DNA of 64,000 nucleotides from Cetorhinus maximus (taxonomy: Eukaryota): contig NC_135914.1 of the NCBI RefSeq assembly GCF_964194155.1, positions 3,224,001 to 3,288,000 on the forward strand, read 5' to 3'. Under the pieces are notes generated by a model that worked only from the letters and a program-made list of their open reading frames with translations, searched no databases and had not been told where the DNA came from. Numbering within the stretch: the first letter of the stretch is position 1; every line of letters begins with the position of its first letter. This document shows, in pieces, positions 7,059-63,027 of this stretch. The position numbers and the translations under genes were made by a program.

Positions 7059-7195
7059 GATTCTCTCACACTCCGTTTTTATGTTTTGAATCAATTTCAC
7101 AGGGTATTAGGATTTGCATTCAGGAAATCAGACATTACATCACGACCTGAAGGAGTTGGTTAATTTATTGTAACCTGGTTATCATTGGTGTGAAT

Positions 7196-7897
7196 ATGGA
7201 AGGAAAAAGCACCGTTCACAGTAGGGAGAAACTGTCCACGCGTTCTGTGCGTGGACGAGGCTTCAGCCAATCGTCTGTCCTGTTGAGACAGAAGCACAGT
7301 GACTCCAGGGAGAAACCGTGGAAGTGTGGGGACTGCGGGAAGGTATTCAGTTACCCATCTGTGCTGGAAATTCATCAACGCATTCACACTGGCGAGAGGC
7401 CATACACCTGCCCCGTGTGTCGGAAGGAATTCAATCATTCATCCACCTTGAGGATACACCAGCGGAGTCACACCGGGGAGAGACCATTCAAGTGCTCTGT
7501 GTGTGGAAAGGGTTTCACTGTGTCATCCGACGTGCTGAAACACCAGCGAGTTCACACTGGGGAGAGGCCATTCATCTGCTCCGAATGTGGGAAGGGATTC
7601 ACTCAGTTAGGCAACCTGCAGACACATCAGCGCATTCACACGGGAGAGAAGCCATTTACATGCTCCACGTGTGGGAAGGCATTCACTGTACACTCCCACC
7701 TGCAGGAACACCAGCGAGTTCACACAGGGGAGAGGCCGTTCGTTTGCTGTGAGTGTGGGAAAGGATTCATTAACTCATCCCACCTGCTGAGCCACCAGCG
7801 AGGTCACACTGGGGAGAGACTGTTCACTTGCTCCGAGTGTGGGAAGGGATTCACTCAGTCATGCCACCTGGTCAGTCACCAGCGAGTTCACAACTAA
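7196..7897 (+). CDS. C2H2 zinc-finger protein A, 7 fingers, no KRAB
   Basis: Seven CxxC...HxxxH repeats with TGEKP/TGERP linkers; acceptor TTTCACAG near 7102; first in-frame ATG at 7196. Confidence 0.85.
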
Positions 7898-12817: not shown

Positions 12818-13032
12818 AAGATAAAAACAAAATACTGAGGATGCTGGAAACCTGAAACAAAAACAGAAAATGCTGGAAAAGCTCAGTAGGCCTGACAGCA
12901 TCTGTGGAGAGAGAAGAAAAAGTTTCGATTCCGTATGAGTCTGAAAAGTCATACGGACTCAAAACTTTGTTTTTCTCTCTCCACAGATGCGATCAGACCT
13001 GCTGAGTCTTTCCAGCATTTTCTGTTCTTGTT
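12818..13032. mobile_element. Fold-back element made of inverted PLE pLTR ends
   Basis: Inverted arms around a decayed hammerhead stem II; 14-bp TSD ACAAGCAAATCATT (12804-12817 and 13033-13046). Confidence 0.8.
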
Positions 13033-13049
13033 ACAAGCAAATCATTGTT

Positions 13050-13181
13050 TGGTTTCATCACAAAATCTTGAGAATAGCCAGATAGAATTATAAAGGTTAT
13101 TAATAATCAGCAGCTTTAAATCCCAACTCTCAGTGAATGTAGTTCAGTCCTGGGTGTCATTAAAAGGAGCAGTAACAGACA
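13050..13181 (-). pseudogene. Orphan ZNF 3' block remnant
   Basis: Similar to the 3' regions of ZNF E (44850-44950) and of the 23900-24056 remnant. Confidence 0.55.
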
Positions 13182-13637
13182 CCTCCTGCATCCCAGCCTA
13201 CACCACAGCCCCTCACCAGTCAACCAGCAGGAGGACTCCTCCTGTATCCCAGCCTACACCACAGCCCCTCACCAGTCAGCCAGCAGGAGGACTCCTCCTG
13301 TATCCCAGCCTACACCACAGCCCCTCACCAGTCAGCCAGCAGGAGGACTCCTCCTGTATCCCAGCCTACATCACAGCCCCTCACCAGTCAGCCAGCAGGA
13401 GGACTCCTCCTATATCCCAGCCTGCACCATAGCCCCTCACCAGTCAGCCAGCAGGAGGACTCCTCCTGTATCCCAGCCTGCACCACAGTCCCTCACCAGT
13501 CAGCCAGCGAGAGGAGGACTCCTGTATCCCAGCCTGCACCACAGCCCCTCACCAGTCAGCCAGCAGGAGGAGGACTCCTGTATCCCAGCCTGCACCACAG
13601 CCCCTCACCAGTAAGCCAGCAGGAGGACTCCTACTGT
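13182..13637. repeat. 56-bp minisatellite, about 8 copies
   Basis: Unit CCTGTATCCCAGCCTACACCACAGCCCCTCACCAGTCAGCCAGCAGGAGGACTCCT; period 56 checked at 13185, 13241 and 13297. Confidence 0.95.
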
Positions 13638-13700
13638 AACGAAAATAAAAATGCCCGGAAAAAACTCAGCAGGTCTGACAGCATCTGCGGAGAGGAATAC

Positions 13701-13739
13701 GGTTAACGTTTCGAGTCCGTATGACTCTTCATCAGGACT
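13701..13739 (-). ncRNA. Minimal type I hammerhead ribozyme (family 1); core intact, one helix I mismatch
   Basis: AGTC CTGATGA A GAGTC ATACG GACTC GAA ACGT T AACC on the minus strand. Confidence 0.7.
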
Positions 13740-13969
13740 GAGGGAATAAGAAATGAGGTGAAATATAAGCTGGTTTAAGGTGGGGGGGGGGGGGGGGGGT
13801 GACAGGTAGAGCTGGATAGGGGGCCAGTGATAGGTGGAGGCAAAGGAGAGATTGCCAAAGGTGTCATAGACAAAAGGACAAATGGGGTGTTAACGGTGGT
13901 GATATTAGCTAAGAAATGTGCTAATGGTGACATTAAGGGTAGAAAACAGGATGAGCAAGTTACAAATAG

Positions 13970-14120
13970 ATAAAAACAAAAAGTTAAAAGCTACTGCGGA
14001 TGCTGGAAATCCAAAACAAAACCAGAAACAGAATTACCTGGAAAAACTCAGCAGGTCTGGCAGCATCGGCGGAGAAGAAATCAGTTAACGTTTCGAGCCT
14101 TCATGGCCCTTCGGCAGAAC
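13970..14120 (-). mobile_element. About 150-bp PLE-derived mini-element nested in a pLTR, with a variant hammerhead core (CTGCCGA)
   Basis: TSD ACAAATAG (13962-13969 and 14119-14126); starts GTT CTGCCGA AGGGCC ATGAA GGCTC GAAACGTTAAC. Confidence 0.7.
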
Positions 14121-15624
14121 AAATAGCCCTAGTGGGGGTGGGGTGGAGGGAAGTGATCGAAATAGGTTAAAAGGTGGAGATGAAACAATGGATGGAAATA
14201 CATTCAAAAATAATGGAAATAGGTGGGAAAAGAAAAATATATTTAAAAAATATAAATTATTGGAAAAAGGGGGATCAGTAAGGGGGTGGGGATGGAGAAG
14301 AGAGTTCATGATCTGAAGTTGTTGAACTCAATGTTAAGTCCGGAAGGCTGTAAAGTGCCTAGTGGGAAGATGAGGTGCTGTTCCTCCAGTTTGCGTTGAG
14401 CTTCACTGGAACATTGCAGCAGGCCAAGGACGGACATGTGGGCATGAGAGCAGGGTGGTGTGTTGAAATGGCAAGTGACAGGGAGGTCTGGGTCATGCTT
14501 GCGGACAAACCGAAGGTATTCCGCAAAGCGGTCACCCAGTCTGCGTTTGGTCTCTCCAAAGCAGAAGAGACCACATTGGGAGCAACGAATGCAGTAAACT
14601 AAATTGAGGGAAGTGCAAGTGAAATGCTGCTTCACTTGAAAGGAGTGTTTGGGCCTTTGGACGGCGAGGAGGGGGGAAGTAAAGGGGCAGGTGTAGCACC
14701 TTCTACGGTTGCATGGGAAGGTGCCGTAGGAGGGGTTTGGGGTGAAGAAGGAGGGGGCCAGGGTGTGGAGGGAACGATCCCTGCGGAATGCTGCCGGAGG
14801 GGTGAAGGGAAGTTGTGTTTGGTGGTGGCATCATGCTGGAGTTGGCGGAAATGGCGGAGGATGATCCTTTGAATGCGGAGGCTGGTGGGGTAATAAGTGA
14901 GGACAAGGGGGACCCTATCATGGTTCTCGGAGGGAGAGGAAGGTGTGAGGGCAGATGTGCGGGAGGTGGATCGGATATGGTTGAGGGCTCTATCAACCAC
15001 AGTGGGTGGAAAACCTCGGTTACAGAAGAAGGAAGACATGTCAGAGGAACTGTTTTTGAAAGTGGCATCATCAGAACAGTTGCGACGGAGGCGAAGGAAC
15101 TGAGAGAATGGGATGGAGTCCTTACAGGAAGCGGGGTGTGAGGAGCTGTTATCGAGGTAGCTGTGAGAGTCGGTAGGCTTGTAATGAAGATTGGTGGACA
15201 GTCTATCACTAGAAATTGAGACAGAGAGGTCAAGGAAGGGAAGGTGAAGGGAAGTGTCAGAGATGGACCATGTGAAAATGATGGAGAGGTGGAGATTGGA
15301 AGCAAAATTAATAAATTTTTCCAGGTCCCAACGGGAGCATGAAGCAGCACCGAAGTGATCATCGATGTACCGGAGAAAGAGTTGTGGGAGGGGGCCGGAG
15401 TAGGACTGGAACAAGGAATGTTCCACATACCCCATAAAGAGGCAGGCATAACTGGGGCCCATGTGGGTACCTATAGCCACACCTTTTATTTGGAGGAAGT
15501 GAGACGAGTTTAAGGAGAAATTGTTCAGTGAGAGAACAAGTTCAGCCAGACAGAGGAGAGTACTGGTGGATGGGGATAGTTCGGGCCACTGTTCGAGGAA
15601 GAAGCGGAGAGCCCTCAGACATTC

Positions 15625-15900
15625 ACTGGTTCATTCCTCAGGGTAATGCCTTTATCAAACAGAGTCAAGCTTCCTGGTTTAAATTTCAAACAATGCTTGG
15701 CAGTTAAATGTCAGTCACCATTAACTGGTGCATTCTCCATGGTAATGCCTCTACTGATCAGAGTCCACTAACCAATGAATCAGCACTCTCTTCTCATGCA
15801 GTATAAAGTTGTTGCTTCCCCTGACATTGGTATTCTTGCGATTGGCCTGATGAGAGCAAAATGAAAAGCTTTGACAAAACATCTTTCTTCAGCAATACTC
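15625..15900 (+). mobile_element. Solo pLTR of PLE family 2 with a degraded hammerhead (15842-15877)
   Basis: Homologous to 32196-32445 and to the pLTR at 48480-48620; CTGATGA...GAAAAGCTTTGACAA. Confidence 0.7.
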
Positions 15901-16585: not shown

Positions 16586-18904
16586 CTATAGCAAGTACAT
16601 CCTCAGACCTGGAGACCAAAACTGCACACAATGTTCCAGGTGTGGTCTCACCAAAGCCCTGTATAATTGCAACAAGACATCCCTGCTCCTGTACTCGAAT
16701 CCTCTCACTATGAAGGCCAACAAAACATTTGCCTTCTTTACCGTCTGCTGCACCTGCATACTTACCTTCAGCGACTGGTGTACGAGGACACCCAGGTCTC
16801 TTTGCACATTCCCCTCTCTCAATATATAGCCGTTCAGATAATAATCTGCCTTCCTGTTTTTGCTACCAAAGTGGATAACCTCACATTTATCCACATTATA
16901 CTGCATCTGCCATACATTTGCCCAATCAATCAGCTTGTCCAAATCACACTGAAGCATCTCTGCATCCTCCTCACAGCTCACCCACCCACCCAGCTTTGTG
17001 TCATCTGCAAATTTGGAGATATTAAATTTAGTTCCCTCATCTAAATCATTCATATATATTGTGAATAACTGGGATCCCAGCACCAATCCCTGCGGTACCC
17101 CACTAGTCACTGCCTGCCATTCAGAAAAAGACCCGTTTATTCCTACTCTTTGTTTCCTGTCTGCCAACCAGTTTTCTATCCATCTCAATAAACTACCCCC
17201 AATCCCATGCGCTTTAATTTTACACGCCAATCTCTTATGTGGGACTTTGTGGAAAGCCTTCTGAAAGTCCAAATAAACCACATCCACTGGCTCCCCCTCA
17301 TCAACTGTACCAGTTACATTCTTGAAAAATTCCAGTAGATTTGTCAAGCATAATTTCCTTTTCGTAAATCCATGCTGACTCTGTCCGATTCTGCCACCAT
17401 TTTCTACGTGCTCAGCTATTAAATCTTTTATAATGGACTCTAGAATTTTCCCCACTACTGACGTCAGGCTGACTGGTCTATAATTCCCTGTTTTCTCTCT
17501 ACCTCCCTTTTTAAATATTGGGGTTACATTAGCTACCCTCCAATCTGTAGGAACTGTTCCATAGTCTATAAAATCTCGGAAGGTGACCACCGATGCATCC
17601 ACTATTTCTAGGGCCACTTCCTTAAGTACTCTGGGATGTAGATTATCAGGCCCTGAGGATTTATCGGCCTTCAATTTCTCCAACACCATTTCCCTACTAA
17701 CACTGATCTCTTTCAGTTCCTCTCTCTCACTAAACTCTGTGTTCCCCAACATTTCTGGTTTGTTATTTGTGTCCACCTTTGTGAAGACAGAACCAAAGTA
17801 AGTACTTAGTTGGTCAACCATTTCTTTGTTCCCCATTATAAATTCCCCTGTTTCTGACTGTAAGGAACCTACATTTGCCTTCACCAATTTTTTTCTCCTC
17901 ACATACCTATAGAAACTTTTACAGTCAGTTTTTATGTTCCCCGCAAGCTTCCTCTCGTACTCTATTTTCCCCTTCTTAATCGATCCCTTGGTCCTCCTTT
18001 GCTGAATTCTAAAGTGCTCCCAATCCTCAGGTCTGTTGTTTTTTCTGACCAATTTGTATGCCTCTTCCTTGGATCTAATACTATCTCTAATTTCCCTGGT
18101 AAGCCATGGTTTGGCCACCTTTCCTATTTTACTTTTGTGCCAGACAAGAATAAACAATTGTTGCAGTTCACCCATGCGCTCTTTGAATGTTTGCCATTGC
18201 CTATCCACCGTCATCCCTTTAAGTAACGTTTCCCAATCCATCATAGCCAACTCGTGCCTCATACCAACGTAGTTTCCTTTATTAAGATTCAGGACCCTAG
18301 TCTCAGAGTCACTCTCCATCTTGATGAAGAATTCTATCATATTATGGTCACTCATCCCCAAGGGGCCTTGCACAACTAGATTGCCAATTATTCCTTTCTC
18401 ATTACACAATACCCAGTCTAGGATGGCCTGTTCTCTAGTTGGTTCCTCAATGTATTGGTCCAGAAAACTATCCCATATACACTCCAGGAATTCCTCCTCT
18501 ACGGTATTGTTACTAATTTGATTTGCCCAATCTATATGCAGATTAAAGTCACCCATAATTACAGATGTTCCTTTATTGCATGCGTCTCTAATTTCCTGTT
18601 TAATGCCATTCCCAACATCACCACTACAGTTTGGGGGTCTATATACAACCCCCACTAACAGTTTTTGCCCCTTAGTGTTTTTCAGCTCTACCCATACAGA
18701 TCCCACATAGTTAGAGCTAATATCTTTCCTCACTATTGTGTTAATTTCCTCTTTAGCCAGCAATGCAACTCCACCACCTTTTCCTTTTTGTCTGTCCTTC
18801 CTAAATAATGAATACCCCTGGATGTTCAGTTCCCATCCCTGGTCACCCTGCAGCCATGTCTGTGTAATCCTGACTATATCATACCTGTTTACATCTATTT
18901 GCAT
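16586..18904 (-). CDS. CR1 ORF2 (APE endonuclease plus reverse transcriptase), C-terminus frameshifted
   Basis: VVYRPP, MGDFN, SDHN, NYRPVSLTS, YLDFQKAF, GVPQG and FADD motifs. Confidence 0.9.
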   Translation of the reverse strand: MQIDVNRYDIVRITQTWLQGDQGWELNIQGYSLFRKDRQKGKGGGVALLAKEEINTIVRKDISSNYVGSVWVELKNTKGQKLLVGVVYRPPNCSGDVGNGIKQEIRDACNKGTSVIMGDFNLHIDWANQISNNTVEEEFLECIWDSFLDQYIEEPTREQAILDWVLCNEKGIIGNLVVQGPLGMSDHNMIEFFIKMESDSETRVLNLNKGNYVGMRHELAMMDWETLLKGMTVDRQWQTFKERMGELQQLFILVWHKSKIGKVAKPWLTREIRDSIRSKEEAYKLVRKNNRPEDWEHFRIQQRRTKGSIKKGKIEYERKLAGNIKTDCKSFYRYVRRKKLVKANVGSLQSETGEFIMGNKEMVDQLSTYFGSVFTKVDTNNKPEMLGNTEFSEREELKEISVSREMVLEKLKADKSSGPDNLHPRVLKEVALEIVDASVVTFRDFIDYGTVPTDWRVANVTPIFKKGGREKTGNYRPVSLTSVVGKILESIIKDLIAEHVENGGRIGQSQHGFTKRKLCLTNLLEFFKNVTGTVDEGEPVDVVYLDFQKAFHKVPHKRLACKIKAHGIGGSLLRWIENWLADRKQRVGINGSFSEWQAVTSGVPQGLVLGSQLFTIYMNDLDEGTKFNISKFADDTKLGGWVSCEEDAEMLQCDLDKLIDWANVWQMQYNVDKCEVIHFGSKNRKADYYLNGYILREGNVQRDLGVLVHQSLKVSMQVQQTVKKANVLLAFIVRGFEYRSRDVLLQLYRALVRPHLEHCVQFWSPGLRMYLL

Positions 18905-19126
18905 GGTTAATAATCCACTTTATTGCGAATGCTCCTTGCATTAAGGCACAAAGCCTTAAGGCTTTTTTTATCATTATTTGTCTTGTTCCCACTATTTTTC
19001 ACTGAGGCCCTTCTTGCCCTTAATTTCTCTGCCTATCACTTTTCTTATTCCCCTTTCTGTCTTTTGTTCTTGTCCTTGATTCCCCTTCCTCTGATTCCTT
19101 GCATATGTTCCCATCCCCCTGCCATT

Positions 19127-19678
19127 TTAGTTTAAACCCTCCCCAACCACTCTAGCAAATAGTCCCCCTAGAACATCAGTCCCAGTCCCGCCCAGGTGTA
19201 ACCCGTCCAGTTTGTAGTGGTCCCACCTCCCCCAGAACCGGTCCCAATGTCCCAGGAATCTGAAACCCTCCCCCTCACACCATCTCTTCAGCCACATATT
19301 CATCCGATATATCCTGCGATTTCTACTCTGGCTAGCAAATGGCACTGGTAGTAATCCTGAGATCACTGCCTTTGAGGTCCTACTTTTCAACTTACTTCCT
19401 AAGTCCCTATATTCTGCTTTTAGGACCTCATCCCTTTTTTTACCTATGTCGTTTGTACCAATATGGACCATCACCACTGGCTGTTCACCCTCCCCCTTCA
19501 GAATGTCCTGTAGCCGCTCTGAGACATCCTTGACCTTAGCACCAGGGAGGCAACATACCACCCTGGAGTTTCGTTTGCGGCCACAGAAACGCCTATCTAT
19601 TCCCCTTACAATTGAATCCCCTATAACCATTGCATTCCCATACTCTTTACTCTTCCCCTGTGCAGCAGAGCCAACCAT
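19127..19678 (-). CDS. CR1 ORF1 SGNH/GDSL esterase domain
   Basis: VIGDSIVRG, HIGTND and DGLHL motifs. Confidence 0.88.
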   Translation of the reverse strand: MVGSAAQGKSKEYGNAMVIGDSIVRGIDRRFCGRKRNSRVVCCLPGAKVKDVSERLQDILKGEGEQPVVMVHIGTNDIGKKRDEVLKAEYRDLGSKLKSRTSKAVISGLLPVPFASQSRNRRIYRMNMWLKRWCEGEGFRFLGHWDRFWGRWDHYKLDGLHLGGTGTDVLGGLFARVVGEGLN

Positions 19679-20349
19679 GGTGCAACAAATTTGGCTGTTG
19701 CTGCTTTCCCCTGAGAGGCCATTCCCCCAACAGTATCCAAAGCGGTGGTATATCTGTTTTGCAGGGGAATAGCCACAGGAGATTCCTGCACTGCCTGCCT
19801 AGTCCTCTTGCTCTGCCTGGTGGTCACCCATTCCCTTCCTGCCTGTGGACTCTTAGCCTGCGGTGTGACCACTTCTCTATACATGCTATCCACGATGCTC
19901 TCCGAGAGCTATAAGGACTCGAAATGTTAACTCTGTTTCACAGTCCATAGATGCTCTCAGGCCTGCTGAGTTTTTATTCCAGCATTTCGTGCTTAATTTC
20001 AGATTTCCACCATCTGCAGTATTTTGCTTTTATTACTCAGTTTTCCCCAGCTGTTAACATTCCAGCTTTAAAAGTTCAAAGGATTAAATCCGCAACCAGC
20101 ACATTCTTACCGGAAGTTTAAATGGTCTGCGTATCGGGGAATAAAAATCACTTGTTCACTCCACCTGCTGAGACTCCAGTGAGTTTGCATCTAACTGCAG
20201 GAATTTGTTCTGTTAATAATTCCCAGGACAGGACTATGGTGGAAGGCCTGTGTATCAATTGGTTTAATATTTTTATATCTAGGCGATATGGCTCCAATCC
20301 TAAGGGTATCACAAAAACCAAATTTACTATTCGCCAATATAGCTCATCA

Positions 20350-22975: not shown

Positions 22976-23735
22976 AGATTAAAGCGAAATACTGCAGATG
23001 CTGAAAATCTGAAACAAAAACACAAAACGCTGGAAAAACTCAGCAGGTCTGACAGCATCTGTGGAGCGAGAAACAGAGTTGACGTTTCGAGTCCATATGA
23101 CCCTTCTTCAGAGCTAAAGACAAGTAGAAATGTGATGAAATTTACACTGTTTAAGGGGGATGGAGCAGGTGAAGCTGGATAGAAGGCCAGCGATAGGTGG
23201 GGGCAAAGGAGAGATTGACAAAGATGTCATGGACAAGAGGACAAAGGGAGTGTCAGTGGTAGCGGTAAGGACTAAAAACGGTGCTGATAGTGGCAAAGGT
23301 AAGAAAACAGAATGTGATAATAACAGAACAAGGGTAAGCGCTCTGAAAAGAACAACCAATCCCCTTCCCCTACCCCACCCCACTCCCACAAGGGCCATCT
23401 ATTACTTGTTCGTGTTGTTCTTTTCAGAGCGCTTACCCTTGTTCTGCTATTATCACATTCTGCTTTCTTACCTTTGCCACTATCAGCACCTTTTTTTAGC
23501 TCTTACCCCTACCATTGACACTCCTTTTGTCCATGACATCTTTGTCAATCTCTCCTTACCCCCACCTATCGCTGGCCTTCTATCCAGCTTAACCTACTCC
23601 ACCCACTTAAACAGTATAAATTTCATCACATTTCTACTTCTCCTTAGCTCTGAGGAAGGATCGCACAGACTCGAAACATCAACCCGGTTTCTCTCTCCAC
23701 AGATGCTGACTTTTCCCAGCATTTTCTGTTTTTGA
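22976..23735. mobile_element. Large fold-back element (inverted pLTRs) with a hammerhead in each arm
   Basis: Arms at about 23020-23357 and 23414-23735 are reverse complements; 13-bp TSD AGCAGAAACCCCT (22963-22975 and 23736-23748). Confidence 0.88.
23077..23115 (-). ncRNA. Minimal hammerhead ribozyme (family 1)
   Basis: AGCT CTGAAGA A GGGTC ATATG GACTC GAA ACGT C AACT; GUC cleavage triplet. Confidence 0.7.
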
Positions 23736-23899: not shown

Positions 23900-26030
23900 T
23901 GAGGATAGCCCAAAGACAAATACTTCATTCGTAGATTAAAGGTTACAAAACAAAACAAACTGCCTGCCAGATTATTAAATTTCACCCCACTTATAGCAAT
24001 TCTTAATATAAGCAGAAATAAACCCCACCTTCAGAATTAACGTGGTTTAGTCCTGAAATAAAGCCAATAATTGCTGGAAATCCTCAGCATGTCGAATAAG
24101 ACACTTCCAAGTGTTCTGAAGAGTCATATTTGACTCGAAATAATCTGTTTCTCTCTCCACAGATACAGCCAGACCTGTGGAGAATTTCCAGCAATTATTG
24201 GTTTTATTTCAGATTTCCAGCATCCACAGTATTTTGGTTTTATTTGTGCTTCAGTGCTGGATGCCACTAACAGCCGAATACAACCCCTGTGGTCACTTGT
24301 GAACTCACTGGTGTCTAGTGAGGATTGATGACCAAATGAATCCCTTCCCATATTCAGAGCCAAAAATGGCATCTCCCCAGCGTGGCTGCTCCAATATCTT
24401 TCCAACTTAGGTGTGTCATGTTGGTATGTGACTTGGAGGGGAACTTGCAGGTGGTGGTGTTCCTATCTATCTGCTGCCCCTGTGCTTCGAGTGGTCGTGG
24501 GTTTGGAAGGTGCTGTCTAAGGAGCCTTGGTGAATTCCTGCAGTGCATCTTGTAGATGGTACACTCTGCTGCCACTATGCGTCGGTGGTGGAGGGAGTGA
24601 ATGTTTGTGGAAGGGGTGCCAATCAAGCAGGCTACTTTTCCCTCGATGGTGTCAAGCTTCTTGAGTGTTCTGGGAGCTGCACTCATCCAGACAAGTGGGG
24701 AGTATTCCATCACACTCCTGACTTGCGCCTTGTAGATGACGGACAGGCTTTGGGGAGTCAGGAGGTGAGTGACTCACCACAGGATTCCTAGCTTCTGACC
24801 TGCTCCTGTAGCCATAGTATTTATATGGCTGGTCCAGTTCAGTTTCTGGTAAATGGTAAATCCCAGGGTGTTGGTAGTGGGGGTAATGCCATTGAATGTC
24901 AAGGGACGATGGTTAGATTCTCTCTTGTTGGAGATGGTTATTGCCTGGCATTTATGTGGTGCGAATGTTACTTGCCACTTGTCAGCCTCAGTTGGATATT
25001 GTCCAGGTCTTGTTGCATTTGGACATGGACTACTTCAGTATCTGAGGAGTCGCGAATGACCCTGAACATTGTGCAATCATCAGCGAACACCCCCACTTCC
25101 GACCGTATGATGGAAGGAAGGTCATTGATGAAGCAGCTGAAGATGGTTGGGCCTAAGACACTACCCTGAGGAACTCCCGCAGTGATGTCCTGGAGCTGAG
25201 ATGACTGACCTCCAACAACCACAACCATCTTCCTTTGTGCTAGGTATGACTCCAACCAGCGGAGAGTTTTCCCCCTGATTCCCATTGACTCCAGTTTTGC
25301 TAGGGCTCCTTGATGCCACACTCGGTCAAATGCTGCCTTGATGTCAAAGGCAGTGACTCTCACCTCACCTCGGGAGTTCACCTCCTTTGTCCATGTTTAA
25401 ACCAAGGCTTTAACGAGGTCAAGAGCTGAGTAGCCCTGGCGGAACCCAAACTGAGCGTCAGTGAGCAGGTTATTGCTAAGCAAGTGCCACCTGATAGCAC
25501 TGTTGATGACCTCTTCCATCACTTTTCTGATGATGAAGAGTAGACTGATGGCGCGGTAATTGGCCGGGTTGGTTTGTCCTGCTTCTTGTGTACCGGACGT
25601 ACCTGAGCAATTTTCTACATAGCCAGGTAGATGCCAGTGTTGTAGCTGTACTGGAACAGCTTGGCTAGGGGCGCGGCAAGTTCAGGAGCTCAAGTCTTCA
25701 GTACTATTGCTGGAATGTTGTCAGAGCCCATAGCCTTTGCAGTATCCAGTGCCTTCAGCTGTTTCTTGATATCACGTGAAGTGAATCGAATTGGCTGAAG
25801 ACTGGCATCTGTGATGCTGGGGACCTCCGGAGGAGGCCGAGATGGATCATCCACTCAGCACTTCCGGCTGAAGATTGTTGCCAATGCTTCAGCCTTATCT
25901 TTTGCACTGATGTGCTGGGCTCAGAGGTTGATAACTTTCAAGCCATGATGAATCAGGTGCCGCTTGTCAAAGCTTGAGGTATGTTTGGTTTGAGTTTCCT
26001 GTCTCGAAATGCTCCCCTTCTAATACCTTG
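23900..26030 (-). pseudogene. Disrupted antisense ZNF pseudogene interrupted by a LINE and a fold-back element
   Basis: Exon-start block GGTATTAGAAGGGGAG near 26026; last finger plus CACAAGTGA...ATCCAGCACTGA at 24250-24400; 3'UTR remnant at 23900-24056. Confidence 0.65.
24415..25922 (-). mobile_element. CR1-clade LINE family B, RT region
   Basis: FDIKAAFDRVWH, GVPQGSVLGP and FADD motifs; same family as 4735-7058. Confidence 0.9.
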
Positions 26031-26805
26031 TAAAATACAGGAAATGTGAGGGAACCCATGAAACACAAGGGCAGGTTGTAAGATTCAGCTGGATGAATCT
26101 GTTCATTTGGGGACCAGAAAAGATGGCTTCAGGGTCCCAGTGACCAGGAGAGAAAATGACTGGCTCGTTGATTTTATTCTCAGTCTGCACACAGGGGCTG
26201 GAGAATCCAGCCAGAGTAGAGGGAGAGCGAAAACAGGGAGTGGAGCAAATAAATGGTGGAGATGGTGCGATGAGTTTGGATTTCAGCACAGTGAGGACGG
26301 AGGGTTTGAGGGACCTGAATTTACAGCTTTGGGGAAACAGGAGAGGGAAAAAATGTTGCATGGAAACCATTATTTTCTGTTCCGGATTTCTGCATGTACT
26401 TACAGTGATGACTTTTGTTAACTCCTTTAACAGGATATTGGATGGAGAGGATTTACAGATGGAACACTCAAGCCAAACAAAATATCAGGAACTGACAAGT
26501 CACTCGATTCATCAGGACCTGAATATCGTCGGCCTTTGAATGTGGAAGGAGAAATGTTTATCTGTTCTGTCAGTGAGAAAACATTTCGAACATCAGTGTG
26601 ACTGGAAAAGTTCTGAGACCTACACGCCCTCACCCGAGTGAGAGTGTTCCAGTGCACTGACTGGGGACAGAGCATTAACCAGTTACACAGCCTGAAGAAA
26701 CATTGCACTATTTATAGCGGGGGGGCAAAATCATACCCGTGTTCTGTGTCCGGACAAGGCTTAGCCAGACCATCCACGCTAGAGAGACACAAGGGCAGCC
26801 GAACC

Positions 26806-27618
26806 ATGGATAGACCGTGGAAATGTGGTGACTGTGGAAAGGGATACAATTACCCGTACCAACTGGAAACCCATCGGCGCAGTCACACCGGGGAGAAGCC
26901 ATTCACTTGCTCAGTGTGTGGGAAGGGATTCACTCAGTCTTGCACTCTTCATACGCACCAGCGCACTCACACTGGCGAGAGGCCGTTTCCCTGCTTTGAC
27001 TGTGGGAAGCGATTTAACGCTTTGTCAAACCTCCTGACGCACCAGCGGGTCCACTCTGATAACAGGCCATTTCAATGTTCCGACTGTGAGAAAAGCTTTA
27101 AAAGCAAAAAGGACCTGCTGACACACCAGCGCACTCACACTGGCGAGAGGCCATTCGTCTGCTCTGTGTGCGGGAAGGGATTTATTCAGCCATCCCACCT
27201 CCTGAGACACCAGAGGTTCCACACCGGGGAGAGGCCGTTCACCTGCACTGAGTGTGAGCAAAGATTCACCGACTCATCCGACCTGCTGACGCACCAGCGG
27301 GTTCACACCGGGGAGAGGCCGTTCATCTGCTCTGTCTGTGGGAAGGGATTCACTCAGTTATCCAGCCTCAATACACACCGCCTCGTTCACAGTGATCAGA
27401 GACCCTTTCAATGTGCTGACTGTGGGAAGAGCTTTAAGAGCAAATGGAATCTGCTGGCACACCAGCGTAGTCACTCCGGAGAGAGACCGTTCACTTGCTC
27501 AGTGTGCGGGAAGGGGTTCACTCAGTCAAACAACCTGCTGAAACACCAGCAAATTCACACGCGGCAGCCGGGTTCGGATTCTGCTGTTGTTGCTGATGTT
27601 AATCTCATCCAGGACTAA
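26806..27618 (+). CDS. C2H2 zinc-finger protein C, 9 fingers plus C-terminal tail, no KRAB
   Basis: Kozak accATGg at 26806 (MDRPWKCGDC); nine fingers; acceptor TTTAACAG near 26433; decayed fingers upstream. Confidence 0.88.
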   Translation: MDRPWKCGDCGKGYNYPYQLETHRRSHTGEKPFTCSVCGKGFTQSCTLHTHQRTHTGERPFPCFDCGKRFNALSNLLTHQRVHSDNRPFQCSDCEKSFKSKKDLLTHQRTHTGERPFVCSVCGKGFIQPSHLLRHQRFHTGERPFTCTECEQRFTDSSDLLTHQRVHTGERPFICSVCGKGFTQLSSLNTHRLVHSDQRPFQCADCGKSFKSKWNLLAHQRSHSGERPFTCSVCGKGFTQSNNLLKHQQIHTRQPGSDSAVVADVNLIQD

Positions 27619-28349
27619 ACCCGGTTCATTCTGCCATTGGGCGCTTGTTTCTGCTGATTTTAGTAACCGTATAGCCAGGCTGGAGTTTTAACAACCAGGG
27701 TAATGTGAAATAAATCAACTTTGTTTCAAACGCATTGTTATAGATTTTTGTCTCTCCCACCTGTGTTTACCATCACCTGGCTGAAGCTCAGAAAGGACAA
27801 TCTGGGGGTGGGGGTGGGAGAATCGTACAGCAGCCTGGACACAATCCTTCAGGAGCACACTGAGAGTAAAAAAAAAACAACACTTTGCTCTTTCTCGGTC
27901 TCTTCACTCACAGCTAAGTCCACGTGTGGATTAATCCTGAGACATGCAAGAAATGTGTCCCAGACACACACTTCCATGGCTCGGCGTCCCTAGGCACGGA
28001 ACAGGAGACTCCTTTACAACTGTGCTTAGAGTCAGGAAGAACGGTGGTGAATGCTGGAAATGTGCTATCAAATCAGAGATTGGTGTAACACTCTGATCTA
28101 CAGGCTGCCTGAAAGTTTTAAAGTTTAAGCTTGAAGTCGAAAAATGACTGTTAATTGTTGTGAAGGTTTAACATGTTTGCGTGACAGTCTTGAGTCCATC
28201 ATTTTAAGCCAGGTGTTACCTCATTTAAAACAAATCTGTTTAGGTGGTTAAAATCTGTACTAAAAAACCAGATGGCGGTGGCTGTATACTGCTGGTACAA
28301 TGATACAACACATATTTGATTAAGAAGGACATGCAGCATATCTCTGAAT

Positions 28350-28915
28350 ACTTTACAGCCTTCCGGACTTAATATTGGGTTCAACAATTTCAGATCATGA
28401 ACTCTCTCCTCCTTCCCCTTTCCAATCCCCCTTTTTCCAATAATTTTTAAAGAAATATATCTTTCTTTCCCCACCTATTTTTAAATTTATTTCGATCTAT
28501 TGTTTTATCTCCACCTTTTAGCCCATTTCGATCCCTTCCCCCCCACCCCACCCCCACTAGGGTCATCTGTCACTAGCTTGTCCTGCTTGCTACCCTTAAT
28601 GTCCCCATTAGCACATTCCTTAGATAATATCACCACCGTCAACACCCCTTTGTCCTTTTGTCTATGACATCTTTGGCAATCTCTTCTTTGTCTCCACCTA
28701 TCACTGGCCCTCTATCCAGCTCCACCTGTCTCACCCCCCTCTACCAGCTTATATTTCACCTCATTTCTTTATTTCCTTAGTTCTGATGAAGAGTCATTCG
28801 GATTCGAAACGTTAACTGTATTCCTCTCCGCAGATGCTGTCAAACCTGCTGAGTTTTTCCAGGTATTTTTGTTTTTGTTTCAGATTTCCAGCATCCGCAG
28901 TATTTTGCTTATATC
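28350..28915 (+). mobile_element. PLE family 1 3' end and pLTR
   Basis: Reverse complement of 13640-14360; carries the best-preserved hammerhead. Confidence 0.88.
28778..28818 (+). ncRNA. Minimal type I hammerhead ribozyme (family 1), best-preserved copy
   Basis: TAGTT CTGATGA A GAGTC ATTCG GATTC GAA ACGT T AACTG; helix I TAGTT/AACTG, 5-bp helix II, palindromic AACGTT. Confidence 0.8.
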
Positions 28916-28989
28916 TCTATGAATTCCCTGTTTGATTGATTTGTGCTTGTTTGACAGAGCTCCAAATACACAATCCAAAGCATGGGTGA

Positions 28990-29470: not shown

Positions 29471-29726
29471 AAATTAATTAATTAAAAAGAAGCATCCATG
29501 GTAACGCGATCCCGAAAGTTACTCTAGAATCACTCCCGCTGCGGAACTCCACCACTGACCCTGCTGAAGATTGTAGGCTCAGAGTGGGGGCTCCAAGAGG
29601 TTACTGTAAGAAAGCTGGGTTTGCAATATCCTGGTCAGGAACCAGAGGAAACCTCACCGAGGAACCCTCTGGAGTTTTACCTGCACGTGTGAGTCTATGG
29701 GTGAATGATGCCTGAAAACTCTTCAG

Positions 29727-30143
29727 ATAAAAGCAAAATACTGCGGATGCTGGAAATCTGAAACAAAAACAAAAATAGCTGGAAAAACTCAGCAGGTCTG
29801 ACAGCATCTGCGGAGAGGAATACAGTTAATGTTTCGAGTCTGTATGACTCTTGGAGAGGAATACAGTTAACGTTTCGAGTCTGTATGACTCTTGGAGAGG
29901 AATACAGTTAATGTTTCGAGTCTGTATGACCCTTGGAGAGGAATACAGTTAACGTTTCGAGTCTGTATGACTCTTGGAGAGGAATACAGTTAACGTTTCG
30001 AGTCTGTATGACTCTTGGAGAGGAATACAGTTAATTTTTCGAGTCTGTATGACTCTTGAAGAGTCATACGGACTCGAAACGTTAACTGTATTCCTCTCCG
30101 CAGATGCTGTCAGACCTGCTGAGTTTTTCCAGCTAATTTTTGT
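29727..30143. mobile_element. Fold-back PLE-derived element containing a tandem array
   Basis: Inverted arms with axis at 30058; TSD core TGATGCCTGAA (29706-29716 and 30144-30154). Confidence 0.85.
29812..30057 (-). repeat. 6 x 41-bp tandem array of the hammerhead 3' half
   Basis: Unit GGAGAGGAATACAGTTAACGTTTCGAGTCTGTATGACTCTT starting at 29812, 29853, 29894, 29935, 29976 and 30017. Confidence 0.95.
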
Positions 30144-30789
30144 TGATGCCTGAATTCGCTCAGCAGTTTGGAACAAACTGAATTCAGTGTCAAGGAATAG
30201 GAACAAATCGCGCCCACAATTAAGGGAGACAGAAGCGGCCATTAGAGGAGCGAAGAGATCTTTGGGAAAGAAGAGGGTGCAGAATGGCGGGAATAATAAC
30301 AAAACCTTTTCCAGCTTCGTCAGGAACAAGAAGGCGGTTCTGAAAGGCAGCTCAGAAACAGATTGCCATGCTCGGACAGAGCTGTCAAATGAGCATTTCA
30401 CAGCAGCCTGCACTCCTGTGGACGATGCTCAGATTCCAGCAGTGGGTTGTGCTGCGGACAACGACACCATCAATATCAAAATAAGAATTTAAATATTAAA
30501 TCGTCACCCTGGATAAAATAGGAAATCTCAAACTAGATGGTGCTCCAGGTCCAAGGGTGTTTAAAGAGATGGGATTGGTGCTCTATGAGCCCCTTTTGCC
30601 CCTACGTTCAACAGCTCAATAGAGTTAGAGACTGTTCCCTGAAATTGGAAAGTAGCTCCCACTTTCCAAATCAGGCACCAACCAGGTCCGTCAGTGTGAC
30701 CTGGATCTGAAAAGGAAGAATGTGCAGGGTTAAGGGGAGAAGGCGGGGGAATGGCACTAAATGAACTGCTCATTCAGAGAGCCGGTGTT

Positions 30790-36821: not shown

Positions 36822-38414
36822 TCAATCCTGGATGTGATTCTCAGCAGCAACGCCAGAGTCCAACTTTGCCGATAACATGTGAAGTTGCTGGTGTCTCTGC
36901 AGGCTGGACGACTGAGAGAATCTCTTCTCACACACGGAGCAGCTGAACGGCCTCTCCCCGCTGTGGACACGATGGTGTCTCAGGAGGTGGGATGAATCAT
37001 TGAATCGCTTCCCACACACGGAGCAGGTGAACGACCTCTCCCCAGTGTGAGTGCGCTGGTGTCTCACCATGTCGGACGAATGAGTGAATCTCTTCCCGCA
37101 CACGGGGCAGGGGAACGGTCTCTCCCCCGTGTGAATGCGCTGGTGCTTCAGCAGGTCATTGCTTCTCTTGAAGGTCTTCTCACATTCCGAGCATTTGAAA
37201 GGCCTCTTATCGGAATGAACGCGTTGGTGTTCTGTGTATTGGGAGGACTGAGCGAATCTCTTCCCACACACAGAGCAGGTGAACGGCTTCTCCCCGGTGT
37301 GAGTGCGCCGGTGTCTCTGGAGGCTGGATGACTGAGTGAAACGTTTCCCACACACGGAGCAGCTGAACGCCCTCTCCCCGGTGTGGACAGGCCGGTGTTT
37401 CAGCAGGTGTTGTAGACAAGAAAATCCCTTCCCACAGTCGGGGCAAATGTACGGCCTCTCCCCGGTGTGAACACGCTCGTGTATCAAAAGATGGGACAAA
37501 CGAGGGAAACTCTTCCCGCACACGGTGCAGGTGAACGGCCTCTCCCCGGTGTGAACCCGCTGGTGTGTCAGCAGGTGGGACGACTGAGTGAATCTCTTCC
37601 CGCACACAGAGCAGGTGAACGGCCTCTCCCCTGTGTGAACGCGTTTGTGTGTCAGAAGGTCAGATGGGCGAGTGAAACCCTTCCCGCACACCGAGCAGAT
37701 GAACGGTCTCTCCCCTGTGTGAGCGCGTTTGTGCATCAGGAGATGGACTGAACGCGTGAATCCTTTCCCACACACGGAGCAGGTGAACAGCTGCTCCCCG
37801 GTGTGAACTTGCTTGTGCGTCAGAAGGTGGATCGAACGGGTGAATCCTTTCCCACAGACAGAGCAGATGAACGGCCTCTCCCCAGTGTGTGTGTACTGGT
37901 GTCTCAGGAGATCACTACTTCTCTTAAAGGTCTTCTCACATTCTAAGCACTTAAAAGGCCTCTTACCCGAGTGAACCAGTTGGTGGTCAGCGTAGTGGGA
38001 GAATTGCGAGAATCTCTTCTCGCACTGGGTGCAGCTGAAAGGCCTGTCCTTGGTGTGAACGCGCTGGTGCTCCGTGAGGTGCACTGACTGGCTGAACCTC
38101 TCCCCACAGTGAGAGCAGCCGAATGGTCTCTGGTGAGTGTGGAGGAGCTGGCGCTCTGCGAGATGGAAGGGCTGACCCAACTCCCTTCCGCAGCGGGAGC
38201 AACTGAGCGGTTTCTCGTCGGTGTGAACTCGCTGGTGCTGGGCCAGCTCCTCGGAGAGTTCAAAGCTGTCCCCACAGTCAACGCATCGGAAAGGCTCCTC
38301 GTCAATGTGATCAAGCTGGTGTGCCATGAGGTTGGATAAACAGATGAATCTCTTCCCGCACGCGGAGCAGGTGAACGGCGTCTCACTATTGTGGGTTTGC
38401 TGGCGAGTCAGCAT
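36822..38414 (-). CDS. C2H2 zinc-finger protein D, 18 fingers (17 intact) plus C-terminal tail, no KRAB
   Basis: Uninterrupted finger array; first in-frame ATG at 38414 (the ORF-track start at 38441 is TTG); acceptor TTTTACAG near 38663. Confidence 0.9.
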   Translation of the reverse strand: MLTRQQTHNSETPFTCSACGKRFICLSNLMAHQLDHIDEEPFRCVDCGDSFELSEELAQHQRVHTDEKPLSCSRCGRELGQPFHLAERQLLHTHQRPFGCSHCGERFSQSVHLTEHQRVHTKDRPFSCTQCEKRFSQFSHYADHQLVHSGKRPFKCLECEKTFKRSSDLLRHQYTHTGERPFICSVCGKGFTRSIHLLTHKQVHTGEQLFTCSVCGKGFTRSVHLLMHKRAHTGERPFICSVCGKGFTRPSDLLTHKRVHTGERPFTCSVCGKRFTQSSHLLTHQRVHTGERPFTCTVCGKSFPRLSHLLIHERVHTGERPYICPDCGKGFSCLQHLLKHRPVHTGERAFSCSVCGKRFTQSSSLQRHRRTHTGEKPFTCSVCGKRFAQSSQYTEHQRVHSDKRPFKCSECEKTFKRSNDLLKHQRIHTGERPFPCPVCGKRFTHSSDMVRHQRTHTGERSFTCSVCGKRFNDSSHLLRHHRVHSGERPFSCSVCEKRFSQSSSLQRHQQLHMLSAKLDSGVAAENHIQD

Positions 38415-38799
38415 TTCTGCTTTGTGTGGAATGCCTTCCAATAGGAGGAGCAGGTGAATGGCCTCTCACCAGTTTCCAGCTCTGTGCGCGCGCCTCGGTG
38501 TTCTTGTAATCACACTGATCGTTGAAAACTTTTCCCATGGACAAACATTTCCCCTTCCACATTCAATAATATCCTGGTCCTGATGAATTCAATGCCTCTG
38601 TCAGATCTTGGTGTGATGTTTGATTTGATTTTCCTCTCTGTAAATCCTGCCCATCTAATTCACTGTAAAAAGAGTCAAAAAAATCTTCACTGTAAGTACA
38701 GGATAGAAATTCAAAACAGTCAATTCTAGTTTCTATGGTACATGTTTCAGCCCACCCCAAAGCTGTAATAAAAACCCTCCATCTGTCTCCATTGGAAAG

Positions 38800-44956: not shown

Positions 44957-45715
44957 TCATTTGTGAACTTGCTGGTGTCTCAGCAGGTTGGATGAACGAG
45001 TGAAGCTCTTCCTACATGTGGAACAAGCGAATGGCCTTTCCCCAGTGTGAACTCGCTGGTGTGTCAGCAGGTGGGATGACTGAGTGAATCCCTTCCCACA
45101 CTCGGAGCAGATGAAAGGCCTCTCTCCAGTGTGAACTCGCTGGTGTTTCAGTCGAAGGAACGGGTGAGTGAATCCCTTCCCACACTCGGAGCAAGTGAAT
45201 GGTCTCTCTCCAGTGTGAGTGCGCTGGTGAGTCAGCAGATCCATTTTGCCTTTAAAGCTCTTCGCACAGTCGGAACATTTAAAAGGTTTCTTGTCAGAGT
45301 GAACACGTTGGTGTGAGGTGAGGCTGGTTAGCTGGGTGAATCTCGCCCCACACTCGGGGCAGGTGAATGGTTTCTCCCCGGTGTGAATGCGCTGGTGTGT
45401 CAGCAGAATCTTTTTGCTTTTAAAGCTCTTCCCACAGTCGGAACAATGAAAAGGTTTCTTGTCAGAGTGAACAAGTTGGTGTGAAGTGAGGTGGGTTAGC
45501 TGAGTGAATCCCTTCCCACACTTGGAGCAGGTGAACGGTTTCTCCCCGGAGTGAATTCTCCGGTGTTTATGTAAGCCGGATGATTGAGTGAATCCCTTCC
45601 CACACTCGGAGCAGATGAACGGCCTCTCCCCAGTGTGACTGCGCCAGTGGATTTCCAAATCAGATGGGGATCTGAATCCCTTCCCACAGTCTCCACATTT
45701 CCACGGTTTCTCCAT
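44957..45715 (-). CDS. C2H2 zinc-finger protein E, 9 fingers, no KRAB
   Basis: accATGg start ([10 protein letters not shown]); nine fingers; acceptor TTTTGCAG near 46072; AATAAA-like signal near 44805. Confidence 0.9.
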
Positions 45716-46439
45716 GGTTCAGGTGTCTCTCCAGGTGGATGATCTGTTGAAGCCTCGCCCTCACACAGAACAGCTGTGTGGTTTCTCCCCGCTGTGAATG
45801 GTGCAATGTTTTTTTCAGGCTGTGTAACTGCTTAAAGCTCCTTCCACAGTCAGTGCACTGGAACACTCTCACTCGGGTGTGTGCGTCTGTCGGTGCTTTT
45901 CCAGGCACACTGATGTCCGAAATCTATTTCCACTGACTGAACAGGCAAACATTTCTCCTTCTACATTCAAAGGCCGATGATATTCAGGTCCTGATGAATC
46001 GAGAGATTCTGTCAGATCTTGACATGATGTTTGGTTTGAGTTTCCCGTCTGTAAACCCTCTCCTAAGATCCTGCAAAAGAACTTTAGAAAAGTTATCACT
46101 GTAAGTACGGGATAGATATTCAGAAATGACAATCCTATTTTTAAAGGAACTTTCTTTTCTCTCTTACTCTCCCAAGTATGTGGTCCAATCAGATGGTAAG
46201 AAGCCAAAATAAGCAACAAAGTCCCAACAAAGCAAAGGGAAAGCTAAAAGCAAAATATTGCAGATGCTGGAAATCTGAAACAAAAACAAAAATTGCTGGA
46301 AAAACTCAGCATGGACTGCAAGCTCTCACACTGAATATCTCCATGGCCCATGGACTCCTCCAGGCTGCAATCATCAAGTGCAGCCTGGGAGTAGGTGAAG
46401 TTTTTGCCAAAATAATGCTTTATGGGGCACTAGGACCCG

Positions 46440-48459: not shown

Positions 48460-49040
48460 TCATTTGGTAGTACAGGAGTCGAGTATTGCTGAAGAAAAGA
48501 AACATTTTTTGTCAAAGCTTTTCATCTTGCACTCATCAGGACAATTCGCAAGAATACCAATGTGAGGGGAAGCAACATATTTATACTTTATGAGAAGAGT
48601 GTGTTGATTGGTTGGCAAGCTGACAACAGGACCTTGTGTATTAATATATGTAGCTTCCAGTACACGCAAATGTGCCACATTGTGAGCCCAACTCACAATC
48701 TTAAATTGGTTGTCAGCGTAATTCTTAGCACACTGAAGATTATTTAACAAGGTTGTCCAATCGCGGAATCTCATCTAATGTTGGACACTGTGCTTTGAGT
48801 TTTGCAGCACGGGCTGACTGGGTACAGTCCATACCTTGCCCATTGCGAACAGTGGGTGGGACGTGCTGTTTGATACGATCCGCCAGTCTTTGGGACGTAC
48901 GGCCTACACACCTAGCATCACACTGGCACTGAAATCCATACACCACATTACTCATCTGTGTGATAGGCAGAACGTCTTTTTTGGCTTGATGACAGCATCC
49001 TGCTAGTGGAAAATACCACTCGTGTTGCTACTGCATAGTA
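48460..49040 (-). mobile_element. PLE family 2 (Poseidon-like): GIY-YIG plus pLTR
   Basis: SNVVYGFQCQCDARCVGRTSQRLADRIKQH and LRVLEATYI motifs. Confidence 0.82.
48509..48544 (-). ncRNA. Minimal type I hammerhead ribozyme (family 2)
   Basis: TTGTC CTGATGA GT GCAAG AT GAA AAGCTT T GACAA; perfect 5-bp helix I, palindromic AAGCTT. Confidence 0.72.
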
Positions 49041-52194: not shown

Positions 52195-53930
52195 AAATCA
52201 CCATCTAAGTTTACTTAGAACTGACACCAACCTCCTTCTTTCTGATATAAACCAACTCCACAGCCACTTCCTCCAATCTCCACTTGTCTGATGTAAACAA
52301 GCCCCACAGTCACTGACGCCATTATCCTCCTTTCTTAAAAAGACAACCCAACATTCATTCACACCAATCTCTTCCTGTCTGAAAGAAACCAACCCTACAA
52401 TCACAGACACAAATCGCATTCCATCTGAATAAACCAAAACTACAGTTACTGACACAAAAATCCTCCTATCTTTTTTTTAAATTCATTCACAGGATGTGGG
52501 CATCACTGGCTAGGCCAGCATTTTATTGCCCATCCCTAATTGCCCTTGAGAATATGGAGGTGAGCTGCCTTCTTGAACCGCCACAGTCCCTGTGGTGTAG
52601 GTACACCCACAGTGCTGTTAGGGAGGGAGTTCCAGGATTTTGGCCCAGCAACAGTGAAGGAACGGCCGATATATTTCCAAGTCAGGATGGTGAGTGGCTT
52701 AGAAGGGAATTTGCAGGTGATGGTGTTCCCATGAATGCTGCCCTTGTCCTTCCAGGTGGTAGTGGTCATGGGTTTGGAAGGTGCTTTCAAAAGAGCCTTG
52801 GTGAGTTGCTGCAGTGCACCTTGTATATGGTACACACTGCTGCTACTGTGTGTCGGTGGTGGAGAGGGTGCATGTTGGAGGTGGTGGATGGGGCGCCAAT
52901 CAAGCAGGCTGCTTTGTCCTGGGTGGTATCGAGCCTTTGAGTGTTGTCAGAGCTGCACTCAACCAGGCATGTAGTGAGTATCCCATCACACGCGTTTTAG
53001 ATGGTGGACAGGCTTTGGGGAGTCAGGTTAGTTATTTGGCACAGAATTCCCATCCTCTGACCTGCTCTAGTAGCTACAGTGTTTATATGGCTAGTCCAGT
53101 TCCGTTTCTGGTCAATGGTAACCCCCTGGATGTTGATAATAGGGAATTCAATGATGGTAATGCCATTTGAATGTCAAGAGGAGATGGTTAGATTCTCTCT
53201 TGTTGGAGATGGTCATTGCCTGGCACAAGTGTTGCCTGCCACTTATCAGCCGAAGCCTGAATGTTGTCCAGGTCTTGCTACACATGGACATGGAGTTCTT
53301 CTGTATCTGCGGAGTCATGGATGGTGCTGAACATTGTGCAATCATCAGCAAACATCACTGCCTCTGACCTTATGATGAAGTGAAGGTCATTGGTGAAGCA
53401 GCTGAAGTTGGTTGGGCCTAGGACACTACCTTGAGGAACTCCTGCAGTCCTGTGATGTCCTGTGACTGAGATGATTGACCTCCAACAACCACAACCATCT
53501 TCCTTTGTGCTAGGTATGACTCCAAATAATGGAGATTTTTGCCCTTGATTCCCATTGATGCCAGCTTTGCTCGGGCTCCTTGTTGCCACATTCTGGTCAA
53601 ATCTAATGCTTGATATAAACCAAACCAAAATTCACTGACACCATTTCTCCCTGTGTGACATAAACCAATCCCATAACACTGACACCAATCTCCTCCTGTC
53701 TGATGTAAACCAGCCTCACACTCATTCTCCTCCTGTGTGATATAAGCCATGCCCACAGTCACTGACACCAATCTCCTCCTGTCTGATATAAACCAATCCT
53801 GCAGTCACTGATATCAATCTGCACCTATCTGATATAAAGCTATCCCACAGTCACTAACACCAATCTCCTCCTGTCTGATAGAAACCAAACCTACAGTCAC
53901 TGACACCAATCTTCTCCTGTCTGATATAAG
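52195..53930. repeat. Degenerate satellite of about 45 bp split by a LINE-B insertion (about 52470-53605)
   Basis: Unit similar to CACAGTCACTGACACCAATCTCCTCCTGTCTGATATAAACCAA on both sides of the LINE. Confidence 0.75.
52470..53605 (-). mobile_element. LINE family B, RT to 3' end
   Basis: GVPQGSVLGP and MFADD motifs; shared 3' tail. Confidence 0.85.
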
Positions 53931-62553: not shown

Positions 62554-62681
62554 GATACCGGCAAAATACTGCAGATGCTGGGGACCTGAAATAAAAACAG
62601 AAAGCGCTGGAGGAATTCGGCAGCATCTGTGGAGAGAGAAACAGAGTCAACGTTTCGAGTCCAATATGACTTCTTCAGAAC
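62554..62681 (-). mobile_element. About 130-bp PLE mini-element beginning at a hammerhead
   Basis: GTT CTGAAGA AGTC ATATTG GACTC GAA ACGT T GAC followed by the pLTR tail. Confidence 0.65.
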
Positions 62682-63027
62682 CCGATGGTAACGCTCTTGC
62701 CCACCTTCCGCTCTAGGTGGTGGAGGCCAGAGTACGGAAGGCTGTATCTAAGAAGCCTGGTTGAGTTGCAATCGTCTAAACTTTCCCTTTCCATAGATAC
62801 CAGAGTCTTGTGCGTGCTCAGACTAGTTTACAGGTTCCTTCTCCTGAAGGACATTAATGAATCAGTTAGGTTTTTAACCATACATTTCATGGTCACATTT
62901 TCCAAGTGCTGGCCCCACAATCGCCTATGACCTTTTGTGGCTTCTCTCTCTCTCTCACTGCCTTTGTCTGGTTTACAGGGTATTAGAAGGGGAGGATTTT
63001 TGAACGCAGCACCACCGCCCTTTGAGC

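Follow-up and report, generated by a model that had tools for sequence, protein, structure and literature searches.

An intriguing question is what a hammerhead ribozyme without helix III does for the mobile element that carries it, and whether self-cleavage is what keeps its fold in place. The question is raised by a motif at positions 28778-28818 (forward strand) of a 64,000-nucleotide stretch of the genome of the shark Cetorhinus maximus (NC_135914.1, positions 3,224,001 to 3,288,000), which we refer to as the window. A sequence-only reading had described this motif as a minimal hammerhead with helix I, a complete core, a 5-bp helix II and an extra A, and the sequence matches that description exactly. 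Helix I (28778-82/28814-18, TAGTT and AACTG) has an outer U.G pair and is followed by the canonical A6 core C3-A9 (28783-89, CUGAUGA), an extra A after A9 (28790), a 5-bp helix II with one G.U pair (28791-95/28801-05, GAGTC and GATTC around ATTCG), GAAA (28806-09), and CGT and T, giving a GUU triplet. The G.U pair stems from a C>T change private to the window copy, as most other copies have C at 28803. The predicted cleavage site of this minimal type I hammerhead, after 28813, agrees with standard hammerhead numbering, as the earlier reading had it.

The motif is an ordinary member of a published kind, since minimal pLTR hammerheads, including those of fish Neptune elements, have already been described (PMC4209133). 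Like the metazoan hammerheads of Penelope-like elements covered there, it has a U-rich lead, a short helix I, CUGANGA with an extra nucleotide, G10.1-C11.1 and GAAA-CGU-H without loop 3, and its relatives are mostly solo truncated copies and opposite-strand pairs. The window copy has both CUGANGA and GAAA...UH, A6 being absent in the U6 and C6 subfamilies discussed below. The palindromic 15.2-16.2 segment without loop 3 is present, with ACGU in six of seven subfamily consensuses and CpG decay at this position in the oldest, and the motif lies in a pLTR flanking an RT-EN ORF. Helices I and II, the extra nucleotide and G10.1-C11.1 are likewise present, with 96.6% of cells paired in an alignment of 68 copies, chosen from 103 distinct copies for an intact core, compared with 11-47% in slid controls. 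Within the window, a loose core pattern gave 18 matches where 7.0 were expected, a modest excess that none of 100 shuffles reached. Four 35-nt family patterns gave 36,086 exact matches in the 4.0-Gb genome and none in reversed controls, and it is therefore the repeat family, rather than the loose pattern, that establishes the motif as real. A covariance-model scan against Rfam returned no hammerhead family among seven matches at E<=1, which is expected for a motif without helix III, and folding z-scores ranged from -0.93 to +0.50, with none of the six folds significant.

The motif belongs to a 5'-truncated Neptune-type Penelope-like insertion of about 565 nt (28350-28916, forward strand; edges placed from loose ends at 28350 and 28910-28916) that retains the last endonuclease codons, the 3' UTR/pLTR, the hammerhead and a tail. 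The end of the GIY-YIG endonuclease reading frame (28350-28400, stop codon 28398-28400) matches the ORF end of longer copies, and the 3' part of the pLTR with an optional tail occupies 28819-28916, as mapped from the 3' ends of copies. Longer family copies match RVT_1 (E 4e-7 to 6e-6), and their endonuclease is 48% identical to P0014, which carries PF01541; relatives have a reverse transcriptase (RT) with a C-terminal GIY-YIG domain, and the direct GIY-YIG match of the endonuclease is weak (E 0.024). The linker reads CNRRRCNTC (CX4CX2C), and CSQC and two histidines (CCHH) are also present. A CX2-5CxxC linker with CCHH is a Neptune feature shared with Nematis (PMC8557442), and the Penelope clades reported in vertebrates are Neptune and Poseidon (bioRxiv 10.64898/2026.07.22.740005). 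By its linker features the host would be of Neptune or Nematis type, and the Neptune assignment combines the linker with the clades reported in vertebrates. The earlier placement of the motif in a Neptune-type pLTR is thus supported by the RT, the C-terminal GIY-YIG domain, the linker and published descriptions (PMC4209133, PMC8557442). A programmed frameshift between RT and endonuclease was set aside, as the shift in many matches follows from frameshifted queries and there are reading frames of 720-782 aa that close with the endonuclease. Many long copies, such as the one at L043:4150-4230, shift frame at a C-rich stretch that separates RT from endonuclease, which is partly a query effect.

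The window copy is an old solo fragment. A DNA contig from another organism spans its 5' junction (27775-28403, 25 differences in 631 letters), which indicates that the insertion is old. A cis dimer was rejected for this copy: its same-strand neighbors at 23646, 24116 and about 30047-30088 are all broken, and the nearest same-strand motif with a 5' core (23646-23684) lies 5.1 kb upstream. With no intact same-strand partner nearby, the copy is likely idle. A location within the 3' UTR of a zinc-finger gene also appears unsupported, as the motif sits 1.07 kb past the AATAAA (27709) behind the zinc-finger ORF. C2H2 zinc-finger arrays with 84-nt repeats form a cluster in the window (7151-7897, 26617-27618, 36822-38465, 44957-45718, 54466-54934 and 63004-63804, with a Pfam check of 26617-27618). 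The window also holds a LINE (16586-19798, reverse strand), whose ORF1 is of the GDSL-esterase type and whose APE-RT frame spans 777 aa, and minisatellites without a hammerhead core at 13178-13638 (56 nt), 1741-1929 (40 nt) and 53718-53929 (46 nt).

Five related copies in the window had been listed from the sequence alone. All of them exist, and they are less uniform than that list implied: AACGTT is missing from two, the core of one carries A6C, and helices are damaged in three. A longer copy with an RT fragment, endonuclease and pLTR (13619-15630, reverse strand) carries an A6 hammerhead with two helix I mismatches (13700-13740). Nested in the pLTR of an older copy is a short copy of the youngest subfamily (13968-14122, reverse strand), which starts at its hammerhead (14082-14122; core CTGCCGA, i.e., A6C and U7C, helix II GGGCC/GGCTC), with the result that one strand has two hammerheads separated by 381 nt. 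At 23076-23116 (reverse strand), an older-subfamily hammerhead with a CTGAAGA core and a GUC triplet reads GAAACGTC instead of AACGTT; in this subfamily, which includes L101 and L107, helix I contains a fixed C.A mismatch (AGCT vs AACT) and the A6 core is intact. The other two are decayed: in an older-subfamily hammerhead at 23646-23684 (forward strand) helix II is broken and CAT replaces CGT, and the hammerhead at 62645-62681 (reverse strand), with which a short copy begins, lacks 2 nt of helix II. AACGTT does not serve as a mark of the family or lineage, given that two of the seven subfamilies have GUC as their consensus triplet and that two window copies differ. By manual count, GAAA-CGU-U occurs in 15 of 56 published examples (PMC4209133 supplement).

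Head-to-head pLTR ends at 29725-30144 contain six 41-nt half-hammerhead repeats (29812-30063) without CUGANGA. Each repeat restarts just past helix II, and together they resemble repeated RT jumps or later slippage. A retrozyme-like array was rejected here because the 41-nt repeat is without the CUGANGA core; non-LTR retrozymes are tandem units with a complete hammerhead in each, and the window copy is solo. Further head-to-head pairs joined within the hammerhead were found at 12819-13035, 24053-24243 and 61450-61647. Another repeat family that resembles a hammerhead, CTGATGA GTGCAAGAC GAAA AGCTT, combines a short helix II with the palindrome AAGCTT and is represented in the window at 15847 and 32398 (both forward), 48520-48539 (reverse) and 51843 (forward).

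The family is abundant and its core varies. Sampling of 10-kb stretches at even intervals, restricted to large chromosomes (140 stretches, 1.4 Mb), yielded 120 pLTR ends, 72 of them covering the hammerhead, which extrapolates to about 340,000 pLTR ends genome-wide, about 205,000 with a hammerhead. The exact matches divide into 4,943 with A6U7, 3,413 with A6V7, 20,521 with U6U7 and 7,209 with C6N7. A6 is replaced by U6 or C6 in 27,730 of the 36,086 (77%), a proportion that applies to well-preserved copies because exact patterns favor young ones; in the random 1.4-Mb sample A6 is in the majority (43 of 71 copies, compared with 12 each for U and C and two each for G and a gap). When the core was left free, 39,876 matches were found genome-wide. 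By manual count, position 6 in the first 100 of these listed is U in 68, A and C in 15 each and G in 2, whereas C3, U4, G5, G8 and A9 together show six single changes in 500.

These variants follow one another in time. Seven subfamilies were obtained by clustering 234 copies with positions 6-7 excluded, and age was taken as tail divergence in random copies. Tail divergence is 14.9% (n=16) and 10.1% (n=26) in the A6 subfamilies, 5.8% (n=11) in a mixed A6/U6 subfamily, 4.1% (n=3) and 2.7% (n=4) in the U6 subfamilies and 0-1.8% (n=4 and 7) in the U6/C6 subfamilies, with 3-7 random copies apiece in the young age classes. Trees built with and without the motif agree with this order, and the subfamilies thus succeed one another from A6 to U6 to C6. 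The A>T change at position 6 was also seen in contigs of two other organisms. Our literature search found no report of A6U or A6C in Penelope hammerheads; Lunse et al. 2017, the subject of which is said to be dimeric Penelope hammerhead variants, may already list such changes. The search likewise found no report of this Penelope family in a shark, and the available portions of PMC6155905 and PMC7229834 added nothing on sharks. The 56 examples in the PMC4209133 supplement, none of them from a cartilaginous fish, all have A6, which the descriptor there demanded, unlike the U6 or C6 of the young subfamilies here. In other hammerheads, A6C strongly lowers cleavage in Mg2+ (PMC7151607, PMC3088659).

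The remainder of the motif has changed little. In the six post-A6 subfamily consensuses, none of the 13 other core positions and none of the eight helix I positions varies, compared with 94 of 340 UTR positions (Fisher p=0.002), a comparison that draws on 29 copies picked by hand via motifs containing the core and is biased towards invariance. The invariance agrees with the clustering, which was done without hand-picking, and with the free-core match list. Changes in helix II preserve pairing (A-U to G.U, and U-A to C-G in C6 copies); covariation is thin, with one pair changed on both sides and 322 of 500 shuffles scoring as high. A promoter or protein-binding constraint could also account for the conservation of the core and stems.

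The ends of genomic copies bear on the form of the RNA template. Most 3' ends of copies cluster either at about +95 or at +130 to +135 from C3. Among 82 of 110 aligned random copies, kept at a tail identity of at least 88%, 63 have their 5' end within -100..+60; 34 of these ends lie in a 19-nt interval (-10..+8), with the mode at -4 (A28779), and two are near the cut site. Some of the ends are pairs from a single event. For young copies (n=35, after five oldest-family copies were removed by hand), 13 of 26 5' ends fall at -10..+8 and none near the cut site. Genome-wide there are 1,364 head-to-head junctions at the 5' edge of the motif, counted for A6/U6 copies alone, and 310 at the cut site, where a degenerate pattern was used and the reversed control gave 52; -33 and +63, which served as control positions, have 99 and 85. 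The patterns are unequal in specificity, palindromic microhomology can yield local peaks, and a single palindrome accounts for most of the -33 set. By manual count, the two copies that meet at a junction stop at -3 and -4, respectively, in 19 of the first 50 listed. We found no earlier report of a 5'-end peak at a Penelope hammerhead motif.

The peak coincides with a putative promoter. TTAGTTC (28777-28783) fits the initiator consensus YYANWYY and would make A28779, the modal 5' end of genomic copies, the first RNA base; a TATA-like box (28750-28756) lies 29 nt before it, at a spacing in keeping with that between TATA boxes and start sites. TATA[AT] occurs 29-31 nt before the equivalent of A28779 in most copies that are long enough, in all five core types. 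A TATA box with an initiator has been proposed for rotifer pLTRs (PMC3846280), and Drosophila Penelope is described as TATA-less (PMC2377424). Since the 5'-end peak falls at the first bases of the motif, 29-31 nt behind the TATA-like box, the hammerhead likely opens the element's transcript, with the predicted start at A28779, and copies are likely made from uncut RNA.

The explanation that we favor, at a probability of roughly two in three, is that the element's RNA starts at the hammerhead, that RT, primed some 100-135 nt downstream, copies as far as the uncut end, and that cleavage is slow and made slower by U6 and C6 in a fold that is under selection. Pol II would start at A28779 from the TATA/initiator pair, making the motif the first 40 bases of the RNA, and RT, starting about 100 or 135 nt downstream, would run off the uncut 5' end and so give rise to many short and head-to-head copies. 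Cleavage, if it occurs, would be a slow side reaction that removes the first 35 nt, either through a dimer held by ACGU or with the help of a protein, and A6U and A6C would probably retard it further. In the anole, a Penelope hammerhead was reported to depend on added element protein for cleavage and to be dispensable for insertion in vitro; catalytic mutations had no effect on that insertion, for which uncut RNA was the main template (PMC11167929). Dimer cleavage of Penelope hammerheads is cited in a review (PMC6765202). The proposed need for two paired copies in cleavage of the window motif is not established, because dimers are weakly active (PMC4209133) and the anole hammerhead is protein-dependent (PMC11167929). 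A further possibility, which we consider unlikely, is that the lineage turned down its own ribozyme stepwise, from A6 to U6 to C6, with the rest of the catalytic fold kept; the ribozyme would have been a brake that removes its own capped 5' end, and its weakening would have accompanied the latest expansions.

Where copies begin also weighs against the classical model (Cervera and De la Pena), in which tandem pLTR hammerheads pair via ACGU and cut a precursor into unit RNAs, perhaps circular templates, with U6 and C6 tolerated. If the template were cut or circular, copies would be expected to end at +31 or to lack a fixed 5' end, whereas the observed peak is at -4, and copies extend 65-105 nt past the cut site on the 3' side. 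Tandem elements with one hammerhead per pLTR do exist (L043, L048 and L060; units 3,252 bp apart), and they, the unchanged G8, G12 and C3-G8 pair, the weak stability of the ACGU duplex (-1.7 kcal/mol), the weak cleavage of dimers in vitro (PMC4209133) and the excess of 310 cut-site junctions over a control of 52 are in line with it. The strong slowing of Mg2+ cleavage by A6C in other hammerheads (PMC7151607) is not, and we regard the model as improbable for this family. Alternatively, the motif of the young subfamilies may no longer be a ribozyme and may be kept as a promoter-proximal or protein-binding hairpin, the loss of A6 being relaxation. This idea is partly compatible with our favored explanation and fits the spread of positions 6 and 7 in three different states, the success of Naiad elements without hammerheads (PMC8557442), and an alternative UGUU/AACG helix that U6 permits in the modeled fold of L043. 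Against it stands that the unpaired catalytic positions G5, G8, A9, G12, A13 and A14 are unchanged over about 20% UTR divergence, and we view it as somewhat unlikely, if the least so of the alternatives.

The remaining alternative bears on the transcription start alone, and holds that the 5' ends pile up through a splice acceptor or through RT stalling and fold-back. YAG at 28778-80 follows a pyrimidine tract and resembles a splice acceptor, as in Drosophila Penelope, and in D. virilis the intron extends to helix I (PMC4209133, PMC2377424). Such an intron was rejected for the present family, as truncated copies share no upstream exon, including those that start at -2..0. Fold-back would be in keeping with the interpretation of head-to-head palindromes as self-priming (PMC3846280) and with the repeated restarts inside the motif at 29812-30063; the junctions that end at -3/-4 in both copies, however, have a 1-nt center, which is too tight for a fold-back primer. 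The TATA spacing, maintained at 29-31 nt, also argues for a transcription start, and a splicing or fold-back origin of the peak is in our estimation unlikely.

A close parallel is the Poseidon element PAc of Anolis carolinensis (Frangieh et al. 2024, PMC11167929), which likewise has its hammerhead near the pLTR-ORF junction and two 3' end classes or RT start sites. Uncut RNA was the main template for PAc and is likely the template here. The PAc ORF starts inside the hammerhead, whereas the ATG in the window family likely lies about 120-190 nt downstream, and a 5'-end peak at the motif, as found here, is not among the features of PAc described in the available text of PMC11167929. An A6C core like that of the CTGCTGA and CTGCCGA copies is known from the phage Bcep176 hammerhead (PMC3088659, PMC7151607), which is a single example with full helices, whereas the window family has thousands of copies with a minimal fold, in which A6U is commoner. 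Non-LTR retrozymes share the type I hammerhead and a link to Penelope pLTRs (PMC7229834) and have been reported in one cartilaginous fish (bioRxiv 10.64898/2026.07.22.740005); they differ in their tandem arrays of complete hammerheads, as the array in the window consists of 41-nt repeats without the core.

The window copy is by itself ordinary, and its family is a variant that merits interest with respect to cleavage. For the role of Penelope hammerheads, this family provides a natural, dated series of A6, U6 and C6 and of GUU and GUC variants on one scaffold. The family also records its template ends in the genome, and the rate of cleavage can be compared directly with retrotransposition success. 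Searches that demand CUGANGA miss most of the young copies of the family in this genome.
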